This document shows, piece by piece, positions 25,781 through 50,992 of a DNA stretch of 64,000 nt (its first letter is position 1; every line of letters starts with the position of its first letter). Below the pieces are notes generated by a model, which saw nothing but the letters and a program-made list of their open reading frames with translations, did not search any database and was not told where the DNA came from. Where the stretch lies: positions 32,001 to 96,000 of the IMG/VR virus record IMGVR_UViG_3300009448_000011. The stretch is one strand, 5' to 3'. The position numbers and the translations under genes are program-made. Source of the DNA: a virus.

Positions 25781-25810
25781 TTGACATACTAAGTTATGGT
25801 ATGTTATACT
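25781..25810 (+). promoter_or_regulatory. Sigma70-type promoter of cassette copy 1
   Basis: TTGACA-N18-TATACT with TG extended -10. Confidence 0.75.
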
Positions 25811-25834
25811 TTAAAAAAGGAAAAAGAGAATAGA

Positions 25835-26419
25835 ATGAATTTAGAAACTTGTCAAAACTTAAGCTTGATAATAGAAAAAGACCAAACAATTGAAGTAATT
25901 GAAATTTGGGCAAAAGTATTATATATAAGAAGAAGCAAAGGAAGAAATTCATTTTATTCGAAGAAAGGAATAACAAAAGAAACAGAAGGAATATTTTGTA
26001 ATAACTTAAAAGTTTCAGAAAATTATAAAAGCCTTTTTAAAAAATACCACCCCGATTTAAACAAAGGAAAAGAAAGTTATGTTGACATTTCAAAAAACAT
26101 TAATAGATGGAAAAACTTATTACTTGAGAGTGGACAAAGAGAGTTTGATCAACAATTATATACAGAGCTTATTGAGTTTTGTGGACCACTCACATCCATT
26201 TTCACTATTGGAACCAGAGCAAGTTTTATCGCAAAACAAACGTGCGGATCTATCAACATCCCTCAATTTAGTTCTGAACAGGAATTTGTTGAGTGGAAAG
26301 CAGCGCCAAAGCAAGTTGCTTCCAGGCAAGCGTTCCTTGATAGCCAACTTACTAGAGCTCAAATCATCAAAAAGTACGGTAAATCCTACTATGATTATGA
26401 AAGAGATCTTCCTTTTTAA
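25835..26419 (+). CDS. Cassette copy 1 ORF A (J-domain-like HPD protein)
   Basis: Start moved to the ATG at 25835 by alignment with the other copies; YKSLFKKYHPDLNKG; ends ERDLPF. Confidence 0.75.
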   Translation: MNLETCQNLSLIIEKDQTIEVIEIWAKVLYIRRSKGRNSFYSKKGITKETEGIFCNNLKVSENYKSLFKKYHPDLNKGKESYVDISKNINRWKNLLLESGQREFDQQLYTELIEFCGPLTSIFTIGTRASFIAKQTCGSINIPQFSSEQEFVEWKAAPKQVASRQAFLDSQLTRAQIIKKYGKSYYDYERDLPF

Positions 26420-26825
26420 TCCTGACCAGGACACTATAATACGTCCTTACGGATTAGAAAAAAATCAAATGTATAGTAATTATATGCCAACGGGCAAAGA
26501 AAGCAAAAATTATTTAAGGAGTTACATTAATAAAGCAGAATCTTTAGGGATCAAAGTCAAAGCTTTCAATTTTAACATTTGCGGTCCTGTTGTCACACAA
26601 GAAGCTATTGAATTCGCCAATTACATGAATATTGCAATTAAAGAATTAAATGGAGTGAAAATACAAATCAATGTATTCACTTTGGAACAATTAATCAAAG
26701 AATTAATGACAAATATAAATGGAAACAAATGGTTCATCACTTCGCAAGTTCCAAGTATATGCTGGGGAAAAGATCAGGTACAATATTTAATTTCAGAAAA
26801 AAAAGCTATATTAACAGAAAGTTAA
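26079..26825 (+). CDS. Cassette copy 1 ORF B (PD-(D/E)xK endonuclease), +1 frame overlap
   Basis: KRADLST...LLELK; homologous to three other copies. Confidence 0.75.
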   Translation: MLTFQKTLIDGKTYYLRVDKESLINNYIQSLLSFVDHSHPFSLLEPEQVLSQNKRADLSTSLNLVLNRNLLSGKQRQSKLLPGKRSLIANLLELKSSKSTVNPTMIMKEIFLFNPDQDTIIRPYGLEKNQMYSNYMPTGKESKNYLRSYINKAESLGIKVKAFNFNICGPVVTQEAIEFANYMNIAIKELNGVKIQINVFTLEQLIKELMTNINGNKWFITSQVPSICWGKDQVQYLISEKKAILTES

Positions 26826-27422: not shown

Positions 27423-28993
27423 TTTTTGTTATTTTGATTTACCTAAAATAGCAGAATGCCCCCATCAGAACGGTACTCCGTTTGGTGGCGGGATGAATGC
27501 GAGTGAGGCGACGATTGCCTGTCCTCCTTCCGAGATCTACCGATTGTCGGGATTGTCGGACAGGCATAAGGAGACGAACAAATTCATTGCTTATTCAATG
27601 TTTTATCTGAGTTTTTCTGGATAAAATTATGCTATCATAGTTTCATGATAGTTAGAGAAGCCAAGCTAAAATACGGTACAGCAGAGCAATATTCTGCCAT
27701 TGATAAAGCCATCCGAACAGCACAGTTCATTCGGAACAAAGCCGTTCGCTATTGGATGGACAATCAAGGTACGAGTAAAGCCGATCTGTACAGTATCTGC
27801 AAAGACTTGGCTAAAGAGTTTGACTTTGCTAAAAAGCTTAACTCCGCTGCTCGTCAGGCTAGTGCTGAACGTGCTTGGGTTGCTATCTCTAGCTTCTACA
27901 CCCGATGCAAAAAGCGGCTCACTCCAGTTGGGTCTCCCAACCATGGAAGTAAGACAAAACAAGGCGTAGGCAAGAAAGGTTTTCCAAAGTTTAAGAAACA
28001 TTGTCGTTCTGTTGAGTATAAGGTTTCAGGATGGAAACTATCGAAAGATTGCAAATCGATCGCATTCACTGATGGTTTTGAGATTGGAACATTATCGATA
28101 TTTTGCAACAATGAAACTCAAGAAGACTTGCATAGGCTGAAAATTAATCGTGTGCGGATCGTGCGGAGAGCAGACGGGTATTATGCCCAATTCTGTTTTG
28201 ATGCAGATCGTAAAGAGCAAGGGGAATATTCAGGCAATGTTGTCGGATTGGATTTAGGGTTGAAGTTTTTCACCAAAGACCAAAACGATAATGCTGTAAT
28301 ATATCCACAGTTCTTGAGAAAGGCCCAGATGCAACTCAAGAAAACTCAACGTCGATTAAGCAAGAAATTTGTGAAGGGTGCCAAACCCCAATCAAACAAC
28401 TACCACAAGGCGCAAAAACAACTAGGAAGAATTCATCTCAAAATTCAACGCCAGCGAAAAGATTGGGCGATAAAAGCCGCCCGAAACGTAGTGATATCTA
28501 ACGATGTCGTGGTGTATGAAAATTTGAAGATTGCGAACATGGTCAAAAATCATCATTTGGCTAAGTCAATTTCCGATGCTGGTTGGTATCAATACACTCA
28601 ATGGCTGGACTACTATGGCAAGATTTGGGATAAAGCAGTTGTGGCAGTATCGCCAAACTATACGTCTCAAGATTGCTCTAATTGCGGTCATCGAGTGAAA
28701 AAGTCTCTTAGTACCAGAACGCACTCATGCCCCAACTGCAAAATTGAAATTTGTCGCGATACGAATGCGGCTTTGAATATCTTGCACAAGGGATTGAACA
28801 TTCTTGGTGTTGAGTGGGACAAAAACAGTACTTCTGGGCAAGAAGGATCTGCCTCTGAGAATGAGGGAAAGCGCGGGGAGAGATGTACCTCTACAGTCGA
28901 TGAGTAATTAAAGACTGCAAGTAATTCTCTGTGAACCGCGAATAAGAATCCCCCGCTATATCGGTACTTCGATTAGCGGCGGGAGTATGTCAA
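27423..28993 (+). mobile_element. IS200/IS605-family (IS1341-like, tnpB only) element
   Basis: Higher GC; related subterminal hairpins gaatgcccccatcagaacggtactccgtttggtggcggg and gaatcccccgctatatcggtacttcgattagcggcggg; right end ...gtatgTCAA; left boundary approximate (TTGAC at 27418 or TTGAT at 27434). Confidence 0.8.
27645..28907 (+). CDS. tnpB: TnpB RNA-guided endonuclease
   Basis: RuvC GLDLG, VVYENL, RDTNAA; zinc ribbon CSNC...CPNC. Confidence 0.95.
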   Translation: MIVREAKLKYGTAEQYSAIDKAIRTAQFIRNKAVRYWMDNQGTSKADLYSICKDLAKEFDFAKKLNSAARQASAERAWVAISSFYTRCKKRLTPVGSPNHGSKTKQGVGKKGFPKFKKHCRSVEYKVSGWKLSKDCKSIAFTDGFEIGTLSIFCNNETQEDLHRLKINRVRIVRRADGYYAQFCFDADRKEQGEYSGNVVGLDLGLKFFTKDQNDNAVIYPQFLRKAQMQLKKTQRRLSKKFVKGAKPQSNNYHKAQKQLGRIHLKIQRQRKDWAIKAARNVVISNDVVVYENLKIANMVKNHHLAKSISDAGWYQYTQWLDYYGKIWDKAVVAVSPNYTSQDCSNCGHRVKKSLSTRTHSCPNCKIEICRDTNAALNILHKGLNILGVEWDKNSTSGQEGSASENEGKRGERCTSTVDE

Positions 28994-29036
28994 AAAAAGT
29001 CAATGAAAAAAGTAAAAAAATTAATAGTTAAAAAAA

Positions 29037-29459
29037 TTAATAGTTAAAAATATCTATAGTTGTATTATTGTTAGTTCGTTTAAAGATATAACTATTATTT
29101 TGATAGAGGGTGTATTCTTTTAATTGAATACCAGGAGTGATCAAGTCATAATCAAAAGCAACAATAGCATAGCCAGTGCCATCATTAATAGTCCAGGTTA
29201 TATAGAACTTACTTTTCAAATATTGATCATAGCTAGTATCCATGTCGTAGTAGATACCGTAGGGGGTAGTATTTTCCAGGTAAATTTGGCTAGAAGAAGT
29301 AGCACAATAATTCGATTCTGTCAAACCCAACCACATATTATCGGGAGAACAAGTATTTTGAGAATTTGGCTCGGTTAATTGAAGTTCTGCAGAGGCAGAA
29401 GAACCGCTGATCAAAATACTTAAAATAACTACAATGCCGATTTTCAAATTATTAAACAT
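29037..29459 (-). CDS. Secreted/periplasmic hypothetical protein
   Basis: N-terminal signal peptide ending ASA. Confidence 0.55.
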   Translation of the reverse strand: MFNNLKIGIVVILSILISGSSASAELQLTEPNSQNTCSPDNMWLGLTESNYCATSSSQIYLENTTPYGIYYDMDTSYDQYLKSKFYITWTINDGTGYAIVAFDYDLITPGIQLKEYTLYQNNSYIFKRTNNNTTIDIFNY

Positions 29460-29587
29460 TATTTTTTTTATAGTAAATAGTGAATATTAAATAAATTACA
29501 TATTTTCAATTAAAGCAGCAAAATGTCCTCCTTCGGACTAGTATTCCAGTTAAAGGAGGGTAAGGAAGTAATGTTAACAATTTTTTT

Positions 29588-32500
29588 TCATTTAGCGGCC
29601 CAACTAGTACCCAATTTACATTCTGCTTTAGAAGGAAAATCAGGCACTAATTTATGTAATAATTCATCCATTGCTTTTTTCATTCCTAATTCTTGTGCAG
29701 CAGCATATTCATAAGAAATATCTTGAAATTTATATTCAGGAATATAAACTTCCCCATCTTTTCTTACATTTACTACTTCACCTTGTCCAGGGATATAAGT
29801 AATACATTCATCATGAACTAAGCCTACGATATAGCCTGGAGAAGAATGTTGTTTATACTTAGTATTAAGCTGAGTAAAAAACTGATCGATATAATGTGCG
29901 GCGCGTTTTGTCATAATACTAGAAAGGCCTTGTATAATGGTATTACAACCTTTACGCATAGTAGCGCCATCATTTTCTATTCCGTGAGCATTACCTTCGC
30001 CAACGAAATAGCGTCTATTTGTTATAGGACATTGTACCCATTTTTGATATCTAGCCAAAGAACTAGTATTATCAATATAGACTTGCAATTCTGGAAATAA
30101 ATTAAAATAGTTTTTAAGAAGTTGTTCAGCAACCTTAATATCTATTTGAAGAGCGGTAGAAATTCTATTAGCACTTCCACCATAAATTACCTTAAACCCT
30201 AAATTTTCATCTAGGTTTGGACTATACCTTTTAATGTAATTATTTGACATACATTAAAACACCGTGTTATAATTAGTATAACAAAGAAACATTTTAGATA
30301 ATGGACATACAAACAGCGGCGAATTTACAAGAATTAATAGAACAAGATCCTTTAATAGAATTAATCGAAATATGGGATAAAGTTTTATACATAAGAAAAG
30401 TAAAAGGCCGAGGAAGGTTTCATACTAAAAAAAATATTACTTTGTTAAAAAGTGGAATATACATCAATACAAAATATATACTCCAAGAATACAAAAGACT
30501 TCAAAAAAAATATCACCCTGATTTAAACAAAGGAAAAAAAAATTATGTTGAAATTTCAAAAAGCATTAATCAATGGAAAGACTTATTATTTGAATGTGAC
30601 GAAAGAGAACTCAATAGAACAGTATATCAGTTACTTATTACAACATGTGGACCGCTCACATCCATTTTCAGCATTGGAAAATCAGCAGACTTTATTTGGG
30701 GGCAAGAGGCCGGATTTCTCCACATCCCTAGATTTAATTCTGAACAGGAATTCAAGGAATGGAAAATTCCCTTTAGGAATTGGGCGGAAAAACTCGATGA
30801 TTGCCGATTGCCTAGAAGTAAAAGGAAGTTCTCAGATGTTGAGCACTACGGAGTTAATGAAAGAGATCTTCCTTTTTGATGCAGCAGAAACTATTGTTCC
30901 TACTTATGATGTTTCTATGTCTGATTTTCAATCTCAATATTTTCCATTGGGGAAAGAAAGCAAGAATTATTTCAGAAGTTATGTGCAGGAAGCACTTAAT
31001 AGAGGCATCAAAGTGAAATCATTTACTTTTTGGTTTGCGGGCCCTCTAGTGTCTATTGAAGCCATCAAATTTTCTATTTATTGGAATCGCGTGATCAAAC
31101 AAATAGGTGGAATTCAAGTAGAAATCAAAGTTTTGTCTTTGGAACAATTAATTAATTACATCATTTCCAATATTCCAACAAAAAAATGGTATGTATTAAA
31201 TCAACATCCTTCTGTTTGTATGAGTAGAGCGCAGGTTGAAGCTCTAATAGAAGCTCAACTAGCCATTTTAGTATAATCTTTTAATATCTAATTATCTTTA
31301 AGTCGCCTTGTACATTAATGTATTTAGGCGTTTTTTATTATGTATTCTTAAAAGTCTCTGAACCATTTTATAAACTTTCATTTATAGCTGGCTGCTGATT
31401 GACATATAGTATTTTTTAAACTACTTAGTGTTCCAGCAATTGAGTGTTTTTTACTTCACCATAATTTACAATTTAGTGAAGCCGCAGACTTTACCACGGT
31501 CTCTTCTTGTCCATCCATTCATATCTTTTTTAGCTTCTTTAATAACATTCCATTTAGGAACAGTAGCTAATTCAGGGTACATTCCAATAGCCGAAACTAC
31601 ATGAAGATCCCCGTCAGGATTAGGATATGTTTCTTTTGTATGTGGATTAATAAGAAAGGGATTATGCACTTCGGCATCGAAAAACGCATTAATCATTCTC
31701 TCTATTTTTGCTATACAAGCAATAGCTCTTACTTCTTGCAATATAGTTTTATTCTATACTGGCACTACTCTTCACCATCTCTATTAAGTACAGGTGTTTT
31801 ACGTCAGTGCTCTACTCTTGCCCAATTAATATAATAGAATAATAGTTCTAATTAATTTGCTAGATCGGGATTAGTTTACTATCACTTTCCCCGAATTGGT
31901 AAAATATTTTTTATACTATTTCTAATATAAACGACCCTTTTTTATTGTATTTATTTGTTTGACATTCAGCCATATAAGAGATACAATAAAAAAAAGACAA
32001 AAAACAAATAAGGTATGGATGCTCAAACTTGTAGAAACCTACAAACATTAATTGATAAAGATAATAATATTGAACTCATAGAAATATGGGCCAAGGTACT
32101 TTATCTAAGAATGAAAAAAGGAAAAAACAAGTTTTGCAGTAAAAAAGGAATAACTAATTTAAGCTCAGGAATTTATTTAAACTTAACTAACTTTAAAAAT
32201 GAATACACAAAATTGCAACGAAAATATCACCCAGACAAAAATGCAAAACATTTTGAAATTTCAAAAGGTATTAATCAATGGAAAGCATTTATATTTGAAT
32301 GTGACAAACGAGAACTTAATAGAACAGAACTTAATACATTACTTGAATCATGTCCCCCCAACACATCCTTATTCTCTCTTAGAGAACCAGCAAGTTATTT
32401 ACAACAACAAGAGACCGGACTTTTCAACCACCTTGACGACATTGCCAGGCACTATTGGGCCACTGTTACGCCTAAGCAAAGAGCTGAGGCAGAAGCTAGG

Positions 32501-33147
32501 GAAGAAGAATGGCTTGCTCGTCGATGTGGTAGAAACAAAGATGGAAGTAAATACGTCGACCCTTATGAAGGAACTTGTCCCTTTTAAAGAAGATGCACAA
32601 CAATTTGTTGATTCATCTTTTAGAAAGGAACAATTTACTTTTAATGCAGAACGCGTTGTCAATTATAAATGTTACATAAGCAATTATGTGAAAGCTGTTC
32701 AACAAAAAAAAGGTAAAGTAAAACAAATTACTTTTGCTTTTGTAGCTCCAAAAATAACAGTAGATGCATATGAATTGGCGTGGATTTTAACACATAGTCC
32801 AATTTACAATAATATTGGTGGCGTTAAAATCATAGTAGAATTATATACATTAGAAGCTTTTATCGAAAAACTGATTAATATAATCCCAGCCAATAAATGG
32901 TTCATTAAAAGTTCAATTCCTTTTAATTGTGTAAATGGGAGAGATGTAGATCTTCTAGTTAAAGAAAATAGAGCTATTATTATTTAATTTATTTATTTTT
33001 TATCTTTAGTAATAAACTCAGTATATAGGTGTATACTGAGTTTCAATTTATATTTAGTTAAGCCGAGTAATCACTAATACCCACACACATACCTTTAGGC
33101 GCCGCACCTAAAGCTTTTCTTACCGTTGTTGTAATTTCATATGACAT
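29588..33147 (-). CDS. polA: Family-A DNA polymerase, C-terminal (palm/fingers) half; 3 exons 33147-33061, 31738-31475, 30190-29588 (317 aa)
   Basis: Splicing restores motif A DYSA|QEVR and motif B RDRGKVCGFT|VIYGG; motif C VHDE; NTIIQG. Confidence 0.9.
30244..30273 (+). promoter_or_regulatory. Sigma70-type promoter of cassette copy 2
   Basis: TTGACA-N18-TATAAT with TG extension, overlapping intron P3/P8 on the opposite strand. Confidence 0.8.
30301..30879 (+). CDS. Cassette copy 2 ORF A (J-domain-like)
   Basis: YKRLQKKYHPDLNKG; ends ERDLPF. Confidence 0.75.
   Translation: MDIQTAANLQELIEQDPLIELIEIWDKVLYIRKVKGRGRFHTKKNITLLKSGIYINTKYILQEYKRLQKKYHPDLNKGKKNYVEISKSINQWKDLLFECDERELNRTVYQLLITTCGPLTSIFSIGKSADFIWGQEAGFLHIPRFNSEQEFKEWKIPFRNWAEKLDDCRLPRSKRKFSDVEHYGVNERDLPF
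30545..31276 (+). CDS. Cassette copy 2 ORF B (PD-(D/E)xK endonuclease)
   Basis: KRPDFST...CLEVK. Confidence 0.75.
   Translation: MLKFQKALINGKTYYLNVTKENSIEQYISYLLQHVDRSHPFSALENQQTLFGGKRPDFSTSLDLILNRNSRNGKFPLGIGRKNSMIADCLEVKGSSQMLSTTELMKEIFLFDAAETIVPTYDVSMSDFQSQYFPLGKESKNYFRSYVQEALNRGIKVKSFTFWFAGPLVSIEAIKFSIYWNRVIKQIGGIQVEIKVLSLEQLINYIISNIPTKKWYVLNQHPSVCMSRAQVEALIEAQLAILV
31304..31336 (+). terminator. Intrinsic terminator after copy 2
   Basis: CGCCT...AGGCG followed by TTTTTT. Confidence 0.7.
31959..31987 (+). promoter_or_regulatory. Sigma70-type promoter of cassette copy 3
   Basis: TTGACA-N17-TACAAT. Confidence 0.75.
32015..32587 (+). CDS. Cassette copy 3 ORF A (J-domain-like)
   Basis: YTKLQRKYHPDKN; ends EGTCPF. 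Confidence 0.75.
   Translation: MDAQTCRNLQTLIDKDNNIELIEIWAKVLYLRMKKGKNKFCSKKGITNLSSGIYLNLTNFKNEYTKLQRKYHPDKNAKHFEISKGINQWKAFIFECDKRELNRTELNTLLESCPPNTSLFSLREPASYLQQQETGLFNHLDDIARHYWATVTPKQRAEAEAREEEWLARRCGRNKDGSKYVDPYEGTCPF
32199..32987 (+). CDS. Cassette copy 3 ORF B (PD-(D/E)xK endonuclease)
   Basis: KRPDFST...VVETK. Confidence 0.75.
   Translation: MNTQNCNENITQTKMQNILKFQKVLINGKHLYLNVTNENLIEQNLIHYLNHVPPTHPYSLLENQQVIYNNKRPDFSTTLTTLPGTIGPLLRLSKELRQKLGKKNGLLVDVVETKMEVNTSTLMKELVPFKEDAQQFVDSSFRKEQFTFNAERVVNYKCYISNYVKAVQQKKGKVKQITFAFVAPKITVDAYELAWILTHSPIYNNIGGVKIIVELYTLEAFIEKLINIIPANKWFIKSSIPFNCVNGRDVDLLVKENRAIII
33014..33043 (+). terminator. Hairpin after copy 3 (terminator candidate)
   Basis: aaactcagtata/tatactgagttt 12-bp inverted repeat. 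Confidence 0.55.
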
Positions 33148-33209: not shown

Positions 33210-33563
33210 TTAAACAATATTATGTTTCAACAAAACAAGAATGATTTGTTTAATAATATCGCCATGACAATCATTAGGTTTGCACCAACAAGCAAGTTTA
33301 AAATCTACCCCTTTTTTTTCTAATTGAGCTAAGCGAATCAATTCATCATAAACAGAGCCTTTTTTCAAAGAATACATTTGAAGAATCCAGGCCTTATAGA
33401 GCTGTAGACTTTCTGCAAGAGTTCTATTATGTCTAACTGCATAAGGATTATTTAAAGGGCTAGCTTTTAAATTGTAATAAGCATTTTTACGGCCAATGTA
33501 GATAATATCTTCGCCAACAAATCCGTCTTTTTTCCCATTGATAATGTGCATAGAGTTGTTCAA
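33210..33563 (-). CDS. DUF4326-like protein
   Basis: IYIGR...SPLNNPY...LACWCKPNDCHGDII. Confidence 0.8.
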   Translation of the reverse strand: MNNSMHIINGKKDGFVGEDIIYIGRKNAYYNLKASPLNNPYAVRHNRTLAESLQLYKAWILQMYSLKKGSVYDELIRLAQLEKKGVDFKLACWCKPNDCHGDIIKQIILVLLKHNIV

Positions 33564-33570
33564 TTAAATA

Positions 33571-34860
33571 TCAAAATTGATGTTGATCAATAGAAATAAC
33601 AGCAAGAGTAGAAGAAACTTGTTGTAAATTAGCAGAGCCACTAGAACTCATGCGACCTGTACTAGAACCTATAGAAGAAAAACCGACATGTACGTTATTA
33701 GTAGTACTATTAATAATAGAGTTATACTTCAAACATTCAGACCAAAGTTTACTATATTTTTTATAACGTAACAAATTTTTAATTAAATTAATATGACTAT
33801 ATTTAGAAATCAAATAATTCTCATCAAATAAAGGTTCTTTTTCTTCATCAAGGGCTTCTTGTTTTAGTAGATCAAGATATAATTTTATTTCATCTGCTTG
33901 CAAGCTAGATAAAGAAGCGCCGCCTAATTTAGTCAAATAATCATTAATAAAAGAAACTAAGCCCTTATTATTATTAAGTAAAGTTTTGACTTTATCAGGA
34001 ATAACATACTTAAGTTCCCAATGACCTTGAGCATTAAGATCAGTATCAGTATAGATAGTAAAACCTAATTCATGTACTAAATAAGATCTATGAAGATTAG
34101 TTTGTTCTTCGGCATAAGAAGTAATCTTAGCTAATAGAGAAGTATCGAGACACATGCCGTAATATTCCATTTTTGCACAAATAACAGTAGCTTGCTGATC
34201 TGATTCGTATGCAAATTGTTGATGAAGAAGATCAAGTTGAGTTTTAAATAAATAATAACCTTCAATTAATATAGAATTAATAGAAGAAAGTTTAGGAGCG
34301 CCAACATCTAAAGCGGCATAACCTAATTGGCTAGTAGTTAAAGGTCGTTCACCCCAAGAACTAGTAGCTTCACTTTTATCGAGATGGATATCAAAATAAT
34401 CCCTTGCTAAATCTTTAAGACCATGGCCTCTAAATATAGAAGCTTTCATTCCTGTAGTAATGGCCAAACTTTTCATTAAAGTCAAAGAACAAACAGTATT
34501 AACGGGCCAGGATTTAAACTCGTTATAAAATTGTTTTAAATCAAATTGACTATAGTGAAGTATTTTTAATATATTTTCATTAAGCAATACTTTTGTATTA
34601 AATAAAGATTTAGCAGAAGAACTCAATAATATAAAATCTAAAATATAAGGAATAGAATGATTTATACTATTTAATTGAACTAAAGATATTTTAGAACTAT
34701 GAGGATCCAAAGCACTAGGATTTACTTTAGATAAATCAATCATAGTTTCAGTATCCAGTGCAATTTCCTTACTTTCTACACAAAAATCAATTATTGCCTC
34801 TATATCTTTATCTTCTGTTACATAATAAATATCAATTTCCGCTGTTTCTATTAATTTCAT
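33571..34860 (-). CDS. polA: Family-A DNA polymerase, N-terminal half (3'-5' exonuclease and thumb)
   Basis: ALDTET, HYSQFDL, YAALDV, MEYYGM.LD, TGRMSS..ANLQQV, then stop. Confidence 0.9.
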   Translation of the reverse strand: MKLIETAEIDIYYVTEDKDIEAIIDFCVESKEIALDTETMIDLSKVNPSALDPHSSKISLVQLNSINHSIPYILDFILLSSSAKSLFNTKVLLNENILKILHYSQFDLKQFYNEFKSWPVNTVCSLTLMKSLAITTGMKASIFRGHGLKDLARDYFDIHLDKSEATSSWGERPLTTSQLGYAALDVGAPKLSSINSILIEGYYLFKTQLDLLHQQFAYESDQQATVICAKMEYYGMCLDTSLLAKITSYAEEQTNLHRSYLVHELGFTIYTDTDLNAQGHWELKYVIPDKVKTLLNNNKGLVSFINDYLTKLGGASLSSLQADEIKLYLDLLKQEALDEEKEPLFDENYLISKYSHINLIKNLLRYKKYSKLWSECLKYNSIINSTTNNVHVGFSSIGSSTGRMSSSGSANLQQVSSTLAVISIDQHQF

Positions 34861-35371: not shown

Positions 35372-36466
35372 TTAAGAAAGATTTAGAATAGAATTTAATT
35401 GAAGTTGGAGATCGAGATAAGAGTCGGGATGTTCCAAATAATAGTCGTAAACTTTTTGAAGACCTGCGACTTTTTTATCTAAATGAGGAACATAGAACCA
35501 AGCACCGTGTTGTTGAATAATATTTGCATCAAGAGATAAATTAACGGTATCAGCAAAAACATCAACACCTGCTATTATAGTATCATTTCGTTTAATAGGA
35601 AAAATAAAAGGAATTTCCACTTTTTTAAAGGGGGTAGAGGTTTTATTTTTAACAGCTTGAATAGAAACAATTTGACCTATTTTTTCTTTAGCGTCTTCAA
35701 GCCAACTAACACGATTTAAATCTAATCTAACAGAACAATAATAGTGAACAGCTCTACCTCCACAAGTAGTAGATTTAGAACCATAACCAAGAAGATTCTG
35801 ACCACGTTCTTGATTAAGTAAGATAATAGAAATATTACGTTCAGCAGCAAGAGTAACTAATTGTTTAAGAGCATTACTCATTAAGCGTGCTAAAGAACCA
35901 ATCATAGTAGTACCCATTTCTTTTTTTTCATCTAGATCGCCACTAGGAACAAGAGCTGCTACAGAATCAAGAACAATTAAATTTAGTACAGGATTACCAG
36001 CACTATCTTGTAATTTTATACCTGTTCGTATAGCCTCTAGAGCTTCTTCTGCAGAATTAGGTGCAAAGGTACAAAGTTTATCTAAATTAACGCCACAATA
36101 TATCATAAAGTCAGGATCTATAGCATGTTCAGCATCGACCCACATACAAAGTTTGTTTTGTTTTTGATAACTAGAAACAATATGGGAAGCCAAAGTACTT
36201 TTACCAACACTAGTATCTCCAAAAATCTCTATAATTCTGCCTACGGGGAGACCGCCGCCCAAAACGTTATTTAAACTTAAACAATCTAATTTAACTCTAC
36301 CGACGCTTTCAAATTTATTTTTATTACGAAATCCAGCATATTGAGTACCAAACTTTTTACTAAGAGTTTTATCAAATAATTCTAAAGATTCAAAGTCAGT
36401 TTCAGGTAGATCAGTTTCAAGTAGATCAGTTTCAAGTAGATCAGTTTCAGGTAGATTTTTTTTCAT
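35372..36466 (-). CDS. recA: RecA/UvsX recombinase
   Basis: GGGLPVGRIIEIFGDTSVGKST, DAEHA, LDSVAALVP, KNKTSTPF. Confidence 0.95.
   Translation of the reverse strand: MKKNLPETDLLETDLLETDLPETDFESLELFDKTLSKKFGTQYAGFRNKNKFESVGRVKLDCLSLNNVLGGGLPVGRIIEIFGDTSVGKSTLASHIVSSYQKQNKLCMWVDAEHAIDPDFMIYCGVNLDKLCTFAPNSAEEALEAIRTGIKLQDSAGNPVLNLIVLDSVAALVPSGDLDEKKEMGTTMIGSLARLMSNALKQLVTLAAERNISIILLNQERGQNLLGYGSKSTTCGGRAVHYYCSVRLDLNRVSWLEDAKEKIGQIVSIQAVKNKTSTPFKKVEIPFIFPIKRNDTIIAGVDVFADTVNLSLDANIIQQHGAWFYVPHLDKKVAGLQKVYDYYLEHPDSYLDLQLQLNSILNLS
36396..36455. repeat. 15-bp tandem repeat x4 in the RecA N-terminus
   Basis: (tcagtttcaRgtaga)4 encoding L(P/L)ETD. Confidence 0.9.
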
Positions 36467-48402: not shown

Positions 48403-50992
48403 TTAAACAGATATTAAATCACTAAAAGCTTGCATATGTTCTTTGCGCATTGCTTTATATGCCTCAGACTTACCAATTTTGTAGGGTAGTTTTTTATTAT
48501 CTATTTTTTGTGCTTTACTAAATAGAGTAATCACACTTGTCACTAAAATTTCTTTACGAGGTAAATTATCTTCAATACTTCCTAATACATTAAATACATA
48601 ACATGCCGCTATAAATTCTTCTTCTGTTTTACAATACGACGGTAATGAATAACTTAATCCATATAAACCAGTTATTTTAGTAGGAAGAATATTTTTAATT
48701 AAGCGATCATCTTGGAGGACACCTAGACGAATATATTCAGACATAGGGGCAAGGCTAGCTAATTCTTCAATAACAAAAAAGAATTCATGAGCAGTAGCGG
48801 CGCCTAAAAGACCTGGTAAAATAATTTTTAATTGTTGTTCATCAGTAATTTTCTCCATAATATTGGAACATTTTTCCCATGAACGGCTAGAAGGATTAAT
48901 TTTATCATCATTATCTGCGACTGATTTAAAACCTTCGTCAAGAAATTCAGGACGAGCTCTTAAAAAAGCTTTAATAGAAGGAATAATAGGGCGGCCGTTT
49001 TCTGCGCGATGGGCTTCCCATTTTAACCAAGCATTTACAGAAGTCATTACGTCAAAATGAATAAAACGATCTGAGATAGCACTAGATAACTCATAGGCTA
49101 TAGCACCATCTTCTACTCTATTTCCTGCTGCAATAATCATTACATTATCAGGAACTTTATATTTATCAATTTTTCTATCTAATATTAATTCGTACATTAA
49201 TATACCTTTAATTTTCATTAAAGAACGGAATACATTTTAATCTTTACTATATTTATATAGTATTAAGACTTGGACACTCTAGGTAAAATTATAGTCTGTT
49301 TAACTTAAGACATCATTTACTACTCTCTACATTATTATTAAACATTACTTTAATAATTAACACGGGATTACCTTATAGTTTCCTACTTAGGTTTCCCCGT
49401 TAGCCTAATCTCTATTTGTTCTTTTTTGATTAAACCCTATTGACTTATTAAAACCAATACATTATAATATATTTAAATACACACACATTTACAAATAAGA
49501 AATTCAAGTGGACATACAAAGTTGTAAAAATCTTCAAGCATTAATTGATAAAGACAATAATATTGAACTCATAGAAATATGGGCTAATATATTGTATTTA
49601 AGAATGCGAAAAGGAAAAAACAAATTTTGTAGTAAAAAAAGAATAACTAATTTAAAAGAAGGTGTTTATTTAAATATCTATACTTTTTCTAAAAATGAAT
49701 ACAAACAATTACAGCAAAAATATCACCCTGACACCAGCTCAAAATATTTACACATTTCAAAAAGTCTTAATCAATGGAAAGATTTATTATCTAGATGTGA
49801 CTACAGAGTCCAAAATAGAAGCATATATCTTGACATTGCTGCAACATATTCCAACAACCCATCCATATTCTCTATTGAAAAATCAATTAGAATATTCAGT
49901 ATGGCAAAAGAGGCCCGACTTTTCGACGGACTACTCGAGGATACCGCAGAGTGGGCAGAAGGATGTGATGAAGCCTGGCTCGCTCAACAAAGAGCTGAGA
50001 GCCAATCTAGGTGGAAAGAATGGTCTAACTGGCAACGTGGTCGAGATAAAGAAGGAAATAAAATTAGAGACACTTATGACGGAACTCTTCCTTTTTAATA
50101 CAGAAGAAGAAGTATTTCTTGCTCCTCTCGGTAAAACTCACGATCAATTTCTAAAAGAAAATCCTATAGAAACTTCTTCATCTAAAATGTATATACTTGC
50201 CACTAAACTTCATGCACAAAAATTAGGATTTAAACTAAAAAGATTAAATATGACTTTTGTGGCGCCTCTTGTTTCTAACAAAGCATTACAATATGAACAA
50301 TATCATAACAAAGCTATTAAAAATATAGGAGGAATTGCAGTAGATTTAAAAGTATTTACCTTAGAACAATTCATTAATGAATTATTTACTTTAATTCCCG
50401 ACAGTAAATGGTACATAAAAGATAATCATATTCCTTTTATCGCCTTGTCAAAATCTAAAGTAGAAATATTACAAGAAAATAATTTAGCCGTTATAATGTA
50501 ATCATATTCATTTTTATTTAAATCTCTCTTATTGTGTTATTGCTTTAAGAGAGATTTTTATTTGGTACGCAATAGTTTGCCCAGTTTTACTTATATATTT
50601 CTATATAAGGTGCCTACGAATATTTAAGCACTTGCTTGTAAACGCGGTTCAGCCGCACTTAATTCATCTAGAAAAATAATACAACCTTCTTTACCCCAAC
50701 TAGCAATCATTTCTTCTGTTGGTAAAAATTCAGGTAAATAATAAATAGTTTTTTTACTTTCTTGATGTAGATAAGGAAGTCCTGTTAAATCAGTACTATC
50801 CATTCTAGTAAGTCTTAAATCAATTAGCCCCCAATTTAATTCTGTAGCTATTTGTCTTACAATATCAGATTTACCACAACCAGGTTGTCCATGTATATAT
50901 ACAGCATTTTTACGTAAGTCTGTATCTTTTGCCATTGTTAAAATACAATTTTTAATTAAATCAGGCGTAGTGGGAATAGTATTAATTGTCAT
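48403..50992 (-). CDS. MoxR-type AAA+ ATPase; 2 exons 50992-50627 and 49194-48403 (385 aa)
   Basis: GQPGCGKS, DLTGLP, FLDELSAA, QASA|YELILDR after splicing, AAGN, DRF. Confidence 0.9.
49440..49468 (+). promoter_or_regulatory. Sigma70-type promoter of cassette copy 4
   Basis: TTGACT-N17-TATAAT. Confidence 0.75.
49508..50098 (+). CDS. Cassette copy 4 ORF A (J-domain-like)
   Basis: YKQLQQKYHPD; ends DGTLPF; GTG start. Confidence 0.75.
   Translation: MDIQSCKNLQALIDKDNNIELIEIWANILYLRMRKGKNKFCSKKRITNLKEGVYLNIYTFSKNEYKQLQQKYHPDTSSKYLHISKSLNQWKDLLSRCDYRVQNRSIYLDIAATYSNNPSIFSIEKSIRIFSMAKEARLFDGLLEDTAEWAEGCDEAWLAQQRAESQSRWKEWSNWQRGRDKEGNKIRDTYDGTLPF
49695..50501 (+). CDS. Cassette copy 4 ORF B (PD-(D/E)xK endonuclease)
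   Basis: KRPDFST...VVEIK. Confidence 0.75.
   Translation: MNTNNYSKNITLTPAQNIYTFQKVLINGKIYYLDVTTESKIEAYILTLLQHIPTTHPYSLLKNQLEYSVWQKRPDFSTDYSRIPQSGQKDVMKPGSLNKELRANLGGKNGLTGNVVEIKKEIKLETLMTELFLFNTEEEVFLAPLGKTHDQFLKENPIETSSSKMYILATKLHAQKLGFKLKRLNMTFVAPLVSNKALQYEQYHNKAIKNIGGIAVDLKVFTLEQFINELFTLIPDSKWYIKDNHIPFIALSKSKVEILQENNLAVIM
50520..50563 (+). terminator. Hairpin and T-tract after copy 4
   Basis: aaatctctctta/taagagagattt followed by ttattt. Confidence 0.6.

Follow-up and report, generated by a model that had tools for sequence, protein, structure and literature searches.

A predicted PD-(D/E)xK nuclease and its overlapping J-domain-like partner in four phage cassettes: a candidate homing endonuclease family

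Within a 64,000-nucleotide stretch of viral DNA (the window; positions 32,001 to 96,000 of IMG/VR record IMGVR_UViG_3300009448_000011), we have analysed a two-gene cassette present in four diverged plus-strand copies, c1 to c4, that interrupt a mostly minus-strand gene array. The first open reading frame (ORF) of the cassette, ORF A, encodes a J-domain-like protein. The second, ORF B, starts inside the first and encodes a protein that, judging from its predicted model, is very probably a PD-(D/E)xK-fold enzyme with an intact active site. We favour, with modest confidence, the wider view that ORF B is a PD-(D/E)xK nuclease acting as a homing-type endonuclease; the homing role, which we infer from the anatomy and the context of the cassettes, is plausible. 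All structural statements made here rest on predicted models. The coordinates of the features are collected in Table 1.

The four window copies of ORF B share 37-49% mutual identity. Together with the relatives P0005, P0006 and P0012 they make up a set of seven full-length members (31-49% identity), in all of which E21, D57, E91 and K93 are invariant; the other invariant columns in this set include H39-P40, K54-R55, E107, K140 and K158. An earlier note on this DNA, made from its letters alone and referred to here as the sequence-only reading, had listed three motifs for every copy, and all three were indeed found: (i) KR(P/A)D(F/L)ST, which reads KRPDFST in three of the four window copies and KRADLST in c1, (ii) a hydrophobic-E-x-K motif, which reads LLELK, CLEVK, VVETK and VVEIK across the window copies, and (iii) a K-x-Y motif, preceded by Ser or Tyr, which opens a predicted helix and retains its Tyr in six of the seven full-length members. 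The same motifs are borne by the three relatives, and another three members, known only in part, have ExK as well. The distance of about 30 residues that had been given between PD and ExK is slightly too short: 34-42 residues separate the Asp from the Glu in the window copies (32-33 in the relatives). The strong variation ascribed to the intervening loop is borne out by the alignments, in which this segment is indel-rich and poorly conserved; its predicted local distance difference test (pLDDT) score is 56-70. A second variable segment of ORF B comprises residues 109-139.

The AlphaFold2 model of ORF B, generated from an 18-sequence alignment, is a single compact domain that uses both halves of the protein (pLDDT 90.4; predicted template-modelling score 0.86), with the N-terminal half (pLDDT 92-95) contributing core strands. 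In an exhaustive VIA structural comparison against 48,161 PDB representatives, the best match was NucS (2vld; Z 7.7; root-mean-square deviation (rmsd) 2.7 Å over 102 aligned residues), in an alignment that begins at the E21 helix. It was followed by AF1548 (1y88; Z 7.6), FokI (2fok; Z 7.5, 145 aligned), the small subunit of R.BspD6I (Z 7.0, 131 residues) and Can2 (Z 7.0). Of the best 50 matches, no fewer than 34 are named PD-(D/E)xK nucleases, and a second-look run agrees with this result; the restriction-fold matches include EcoRII, SgrAI, BsoBI, NucC, Card1, Shedu, MspJI, Bax1, Cfr10I and BglII. The top Foldseek matches were EcoRII, Nt.BspD6I and FokI (E 0.03-0.15). In the model, E21 is the first residue of helix 21-32, D57 stands directly before strand 58-60, and the end of strand 84-92 carries E91 and K93. 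The predicted protein thus shows the features that characterise the superfamily: neighbours with the core fold, whose helix-strand-strand-strand-helix-strand order gives a mixed sheet between helices and is matched by the motif positions, an acidic residue before the second strand, E-x-K on the third strand and a Glu on the first helix. The sequence-only reading had called ORF B a PD-(D/E)xK nuclease and had proposed AlphaFold and Foldseek as a check. This claim has gained considerably: a restriction-endonuclease fold is predicted by a confident model, its structural neighbours are nearly all nucleases of that fold, and the invariant E...PD...ExK residues lie on the canonical helix and strands.

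It should be noted that the residues of the predicted active site are encoded in DNA that is read in two frames. Each cassette encodes an ORF A of 190-207 amino acids and an ORF B of 243-268 amino acids that starts inside ORF A in the +1 frame; the overlap of 335-404 nucleotides corresponds to the N-terminal 111-134 codons of ORF B, the part that bears the motifs. When the ORF A protein was kept and its codons were resampled according to the codon usage of the phage, frame B remained open in at most 0.12% of the trials for any copy, and in the converse resampling, with ORF B kept, frame A was open in none of 5000 trials. Mismatches among the copies within the overlap are distributed over the three frame-B codon positions as 0.41/0.34/0.52, which is a coding pattern; counted by frame-A codon position the values are 0.53/0.40/0.44, the first position being the most variable. 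In this region the B proteins share 48% of their amino acids and the A proteins 35%. Both frames are therefore maintained, and B is more constrained than A within the overlap. The openness of frame B in the resampling and the frame-B substitution pattern argue that the motif-bearing part is under selection as a protein. Public gene calls mostly contain only the C-terminal 113-166 residues (about 140) of ORF B, outside the overlap with A. We considered whether only these C-terminal residues constitute a real gene, and rejected this because frame B is open beyond chance, the substitutions follow frame B and a single domain is built from both halves. Owing to its overlap with ORF A, the catalytic half has been missed by gene finders, and the family is consequently largely invisible in databases.

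Three of the cassettes lie inside minus-strand intervening sequences, and the sites are in conserved motifs (Table 1). In the case of PolA, the minus-strand join of 33061-33147, 31475-31738 and 29588-30190 restores motifs A and B, as seen from the translation. In the case of the MoxR-like ATPase, taking out the insertion that holds c4 restores the region after Walker B, and the ORF downstream of the split matches positions 119-332 of an ATPase PHROG. Partial group I intron cores were detected in the c2 and c4 insertions; both came only from short-range searches and scored below the gathering score, and no Rfam group I match was present in the window at the gathering score, nor at E up to 5 in a search over 11 kb. 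The cassette is located 3' of P4-P6 in the c2-bearing intron in PolA motif B and 5' of P4-P6 in the c4-bearing intron in the ATPase gene, which indicates that it entered the ribozymes at different points. Cassette c1 is flanked by only 55 and 84 nucleotides of non-coding DNA, too short for a ribozyme, and hence is regarded as free-standing. The cassettes are thus found in the kinds of location occupied by the homing class: intron-borne (c2 and c4), within a split gene (c3) and free-standing (c1). They also carry expression signals of their own. Besides the promoters of c2 and c3, a promoter of c4 was recognised by eye (TTGACT-17-TATAAT), and hairpins are present 3' of the ORF B stops. The c2 promoter falls in the 3' part of the intron.

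Table 1. Positions, in window coordinates, of the cassettes, their genes and signals, and the insertions that hold them
Feature	Coordinates	Strand	Remarks
Cassette c1	25796-26825	+	
Cassette c2	30301-31276	+	
Cassette c3	32015-32987	+	
Cassette c4	49508-50501	+	
ORF A, copy 1	25796..26419	+	likely start is the Met at 25835
ORF A, copy 2	30301..30879	+	192 aa; J-domain-like, HPD; shares ORF B codons 1-111, read in frame -1 with respect to B
ORF A, copy 3	32015..32587	+	
ORF A, copy 4	49508..50098	+	GTG start
ORF B, copy 1	26079..26825	+	248 aa; RAD in place of RPD; free-standing between two minus-strand genes
ORF B, copy 2	30545..31276	+	243 aa; predicted PD-(D/E)xK nuclease; E21, D57, E91, K93, K140-x-Y142
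ORF B, copy 3	32199..32987	+	262 aa
ORF B, copy 4	49695..50501	+	268 aa
Promoter of c2, consensus sigma-70	30244..30273	+	TTGACA-18 nt-TATAAT; TG before the second hexamer (extended -10); 12/12
Promoter of c3	31959-31987	+	TTGACA-17 nt-TACAAT; 11/12
Terminator-like hairpin and T-run of c2	31303..31340	+	3' of the ORF B stop; stem imperfect; recognised by inspection, absent from the scan's calls
Intervening sequence in PolA motif B (GFT/VIYGG)	30191..31474	-	c2 antisense inside; join checked by translation
Intervening sequence in PolA motif A (DYSA/QEVR)	31739..33060	-	holds c3
Intervening sequence in MoxR-like AAA ATPase, just after Walker B (LQASA/YELILD)	49216..50626	-	holds c4
Partial group I core, c2	31353..31438	-	Rfam RF00028 model positions 60-147, P4-P6; search over 241 nt gave 25.6 bits (E 7.9e-5), below gathering score
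Weak group I core, c4	49324-49400	-	E 0.084; below gathering score

At the sequence level, the claim that ORF B represents a new family holds. ORF B and its relatives have no usable match in Pfam, PHROGs, NCBIfam or PADLOC, nor among the PDB sequences, which were searched with the family profile at E up to 10, and tblastn against 50,697 GenBank phage records returned nothing. The ESM Atlas yielded only sub-threshold leads (0.88-0.89), among them MunI-like and PDDEXK_18 clusters, and Foldseek against BFVD gave weak matches only. A profile search of 1.84 billion representatives retrieved just 18 ORF B clusters. Five ORF B and five ORF A relatives are each recorded on a 282,341-bp contig in ENA, presumably the same contig, and further A/B pairs are recorded on contigs of matching size (14,224, 12,427 and 1,361 bp). 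Other contigs with relatives include one of 109,119 bp and Logan contigs of 12-56 kb. No related loci were found in IMG/VR (searched with the ORF B profile, three single relatives and the ORF A profile), JGI metagenomes, GTDB genomes or GenBank phages, and there is no fifth cassette or ORF B copy elsewhere in the 105.7-kb record. In a tree built on the C-terminal 135 amino acids of ORF B, the nearest relative of every window copy is on another contig: P0003 for c1 (52%), P0011 for c2 (46%), P0004 for c3 (62%) and P0009 for c4 (49%), the c3 pairing being the only one with strong support (100/99). These closest relatives on other contigs suggest that the paralogues are old lineages shared among genomes and not recent local duplications.

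In every copy, ORF B is paired with an overlapping ORF A. For ORF A, DnaJ matches that fall short of the threshold (Pfam E 3e-5) centre on an HPD that is invariant. Residues 1-100 are modelled with confidence: one helix and a sheet of four strands come first, followed by a helix-HPD-helix hairpin that resembles J domains, with 37% identity to E. coli DnaJ over 46 columns and an rmsd of 2.1 Å over 48 residues to P58IPK. ORF A is conserved in 20 clusters; its invariant residues W25, Y30, R32, G36, F40, K43 and G52 sit in the small N-terminal sheet domain, whose fold was not recognised. The tail is disordered and poorly conserved, and ends in D(L/I)PF or P(F/W). No DNA-binding fold was recognised in the ORF A model. 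We also considered ORF A as a DNA-binding recognition subunit, and rejected this given a model that consists of a small sheet, a J-like hairpin and a disordered tail. The sequence-only reading stands as far as the nuclease and the new sequence family are concerned, but it had not weighed the constant J-domain-like partner and the antisense orientation of the cassette to the host gene. As a separate observation, each ORF A ends in CC(T/C)TTT followed by TAA or TGA (26410-26422, 30870-30882, 32578-32590 and 50089-50101). Were tRNA-Phe to slip by +1 on the T-run where ORF A stops, translation would pass into the ORF B frame and join A to the C-terminal half of B. This putative slip site may be a mere by-product of dual coding, as A ends in PF and B reads F-L/P-F there.

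We propose the following mechanism. The cassette would be a small autonomous mobile unit in which a promoter and a terminator flank ORF A and the overlapping ORF B. The latter would be the catalytic protein, a single-domain, Mg-dependent DNA endonuclease of the PD-(D/E)xK type whose putative metal-binding active site is formed by E21, D57 and E91-x-K93. Each paralogue would cut, close to where its own cassette is inserted, an allele of a conserved phage gene that lacks the cassette, and repair off the cassette-bearing genome would copy the cassette, with or without the group I intron, into the cut allele. ORF A, translated from the same transcript in the other frame, would be the obligate partner; regulator, chaperone recruiter and targeting subunit are candidate roles for it. 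It is from the models and the genomic context that we infer nuclease activity, site specificity, homing and the role of ORF A. What argues for the homing-type reading is the insertion in conserved motifs, the occurrence at both intron and free-standing sites, the diverged paralogues, the cassette's own expression signals and a patchy distribution over multiple genomes. A more specific version, which we hold only tentatively and consider somewhat doubtful as a whole, is that of a two-protein homing family in which a PD-(D/E)xK cutter and a J-domain-like partner are made from one transcript, antisense in group I introns and also free-standing; in such a system, targeting, regulation or detoxification of the nuclease might depend on host DnaK or some other factor brought in by the partner. 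The sequence-only reading had further supposed that the variable loop between PD and ExK sets the specificity of each copy, a proposal for which we find no support. The same nucleotides encode the disordered, least conserved tail of ORF A, and the loop variability may therefore reflect no more than relaxed constraint in both frames.

Several points weigh against a homing nuclease. First, the VIA scores reach at most Z 7.7, which is in the middling range of the tool, and the fold argument consequently draws its weight from where the motifs lie and from how uniformly the matches belong to one fold. Second, the ORF B model has no separate DNA-binding domain, and the nearest folds, the cleavage domains of FokI and BspD6I, are non-specific modules that need a recognition partner. 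Third, Rfam detected no group I core in the c3 insertion. Fourth, no cassette-free allele was found, and no contig joins across an intron or a cassette in the single public run with this DNA, a groundwater metagenome that is the probable source and that was compared as contigs only (no RNA dataset is listed). Finally, to our knowledge, neither an obligate overlapping J-like ORF nor an antisense orientation characterises the homing endonuclease genes known from phages.

A non-homing module stays the main rival for three reasons: ORF B resembles the partner-dependent cleavage modules of FokI and BspD6I, it lacks a recognition domain, and its J-like partner is obligate. According to this explanation, which we regard as unlikely though worth serious attention, ORF B is an active PD-(D/E)xK nuclease that is not a site-specific homing enzyme, and forms with ORF A a two-gene selfish or accessory module. 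Such a module might work as an addiction or toxin-antidote-like pair, be directed against host DNA or phages that co-infect, or act as a counter-defence factor, and other recombination would have carried it into intron loops and intergenic spots. The strict pairing of A and B in every copy, with relatives of both on matching contigs, would fit such a module, as would the closest folds, which belong to cleavage modules without specificity and to defence nucleases (FokI, BspD6I, Can2, NucC, Shedu and Cap4), and the fact that no dedicated DNA-recognition domain is seen in the models of B or A. In addition, large aquatic phages are reported to carry two-gene modules of a putative homing nuclease and an antitoxin-like gene, a precedent for the presence of a partner gene as such (PMC12619734). 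However, the cassettes are inserted exactly in the most conserved motifs of essential replication genes and within predicted self-splicing introns, which is a signature of homing and not of cargo genes, and no match to a PADLOC or toxin-antitoxin family was obtained.

Much less probable is the explanation that ORF B is a structure-specific or RNA-directed factor, such as a junction or flap resolvase or a maturase-like protein, instead of a duplex DNA endonuclease. It draws on the best structural match, the nuclease domain of NucS/EndoMS, which is a mismatch- and flap-specific enzyme, and on the fact that I-Ssp6803I itself is structurally near the Hjc resolvase (PMC3384342). Yet the copy at 26079-26825 is not associated with an intron that it could assist, the cassettes are antisense to the introns, so that the protein is not made from the intron RNA, and four diverged paralogues per genome would not be expected for a housekeeping resolvase. 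The least probable reading is that ORF B is inactive, with only its C-terminal ~140 residues made or its fold kept for binding: the short public calls and the absence of a family match supporting catalysis are in line with it, but frame B is open far beyond chance and has its own substitution pattern in the overlap, the well-modelled N-terminal half supplies core strands of one domain, and an E, a D and an E-x-K that are invariant in all full-length members are unexpected after the loss of catalysis.

Returning to the homing-type reading, the predicted enzyme can be set beside systems already described. Homing endonucleases fall into six recognised structural families; the classical PD-(D/E)xK class has essentially one characterised example, the cyanobacterial enzyme I-Ssp6803I, and the EDxHD class of phages is Vsr-like (PMC3384342). 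I-Ssp6803I, encoded in a tRNA-fMet group I intron, shares with ORF B the superfamily, the intron-borne niche and the cyanobacterial/cyanophage world (PMC3384342). No PDB sequence match links the two, and I-Ssp6803I is absent from the structural neighbours listed; the two may nonetheless be related. Unlike I-Ssp6803I, ORF B has 243-268 residues with 32-42 residues between PD and ExK, is antisense with its own promoter, overlaps a J-like ORF and is also free-standing. The EDxHD family, with I-Bth0305I of a phage recA intron and the "fractured gene" loci, resembles ORF B in being phage-borne, in its restriction-type core and in its association with replication and recombination genes (PMC3239194, PMC2677866, PMC3384342). 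The EDxHD enzymes have a His-based, Vsr-like site, whereas ORF B has a classical D...E-x-K site with an invariant Lys and no sequence match to them; the ORF B alignments contain no EDxHD pattern, and their only invariant His (H39) is in an HP motif away from the active-site residues.

The cleavage domain of FokI and the small subunit of R.BspD6I are, like ORF B, compact catalytic modules without a recognition domain of their own, but they belong to bacterial restriction enzymes, are not intron-borne and show only 10-15% identity to ORF B. The C-terminal domain of NucS/EndoMS is the top structural match, and ORF B lacks the N-terminal DNA-binding domain of NucS; no match to Pfam NucS_C (PF01939) was found in ORF B, in its relatives or in the six-frame translation of the record. 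The homing genes of T4-like phages, seg, mob and those of the I-Tev enzymes, encode GIY-YIG or HNH proteins, are single ORFs and are normally located on the sense strand of the intron. They resemble ORF B in that one family is both intron-borne and free-standing, has expression signals of its own and includes several diverged paralogues per genome. Antisense homing endonuclease genes are known in group I introns of nuclear ribosomal DNA (PMC9548176), and we found no phage example in the literature searched.

The genome in which the cassettes reside is recorded in IMG/VR as a virus of 105.7 kb with about 28% G+C, mostly minus-strand genes and a CheckV completeness of 62%. The best similarity of its PolA is to Microcystis phages of the Ma-LMM01 group, at an identity of only 31%. 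A DUF4326 gene (33210-33563, minus strand; Pfam E 1.5e-13) lies between the ORF of the PolA exonuclease/N-terminal part (33571-34860) and the first exon of the catalytic half (33061-33147), and its position indicates that PolA is split into two genes as well as twice interrupted. Just past the PolA genes, at 35372-36466 on the minus strand, a UvsX/RecA-like recombinase is encoded (PHROG 97, E 4.8e-54); the phage thus has its own strand-exchange protein, which is a requirement of double-strand-break repair during homing. Between copy 1 and the C-terminal exon of PolA there is a 420-amino-acid ORF (27645-28907, plus strand) that appears TnpB-like by eye from its zinc-finger motifs. Its G+C content of 34-37% is above that of the surroundings, and several variant short contigs over 28350-28730 are present in the same groundwater run. 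A contig from that run skips 28994-29499 (506 nucleotides), which points to either a presence/absence variant or an assembly difference. Within the skipped segment, the ORF at 29037-29459 encodes 140 amino acids with a hydrophobic N-terminus and no family match.

In summary, ORF B belongs to a new sequence family with a new gene architecture, and does not embody a new principle. Among the homing endonuclease genes described from phages there is no parallel for the obligate, frame-overlapping J-like partner or for the antisense, self-promoted layout within ribozymes, and these two features raise the questions of how a selfish nuclease is regulated and whether transcription of the cassette interferes with splicing. 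The paralogues, presumably with different sites of 15-25 bp in PolA and the ATPase gene, would provide a natural series for studying how specificity is re-set. If the homing-type reading is true, the family would constitute a second, unrelated PD-(D/E)xK homing lineage, which would mean that the restriction fold has been recruited for homing more than once.

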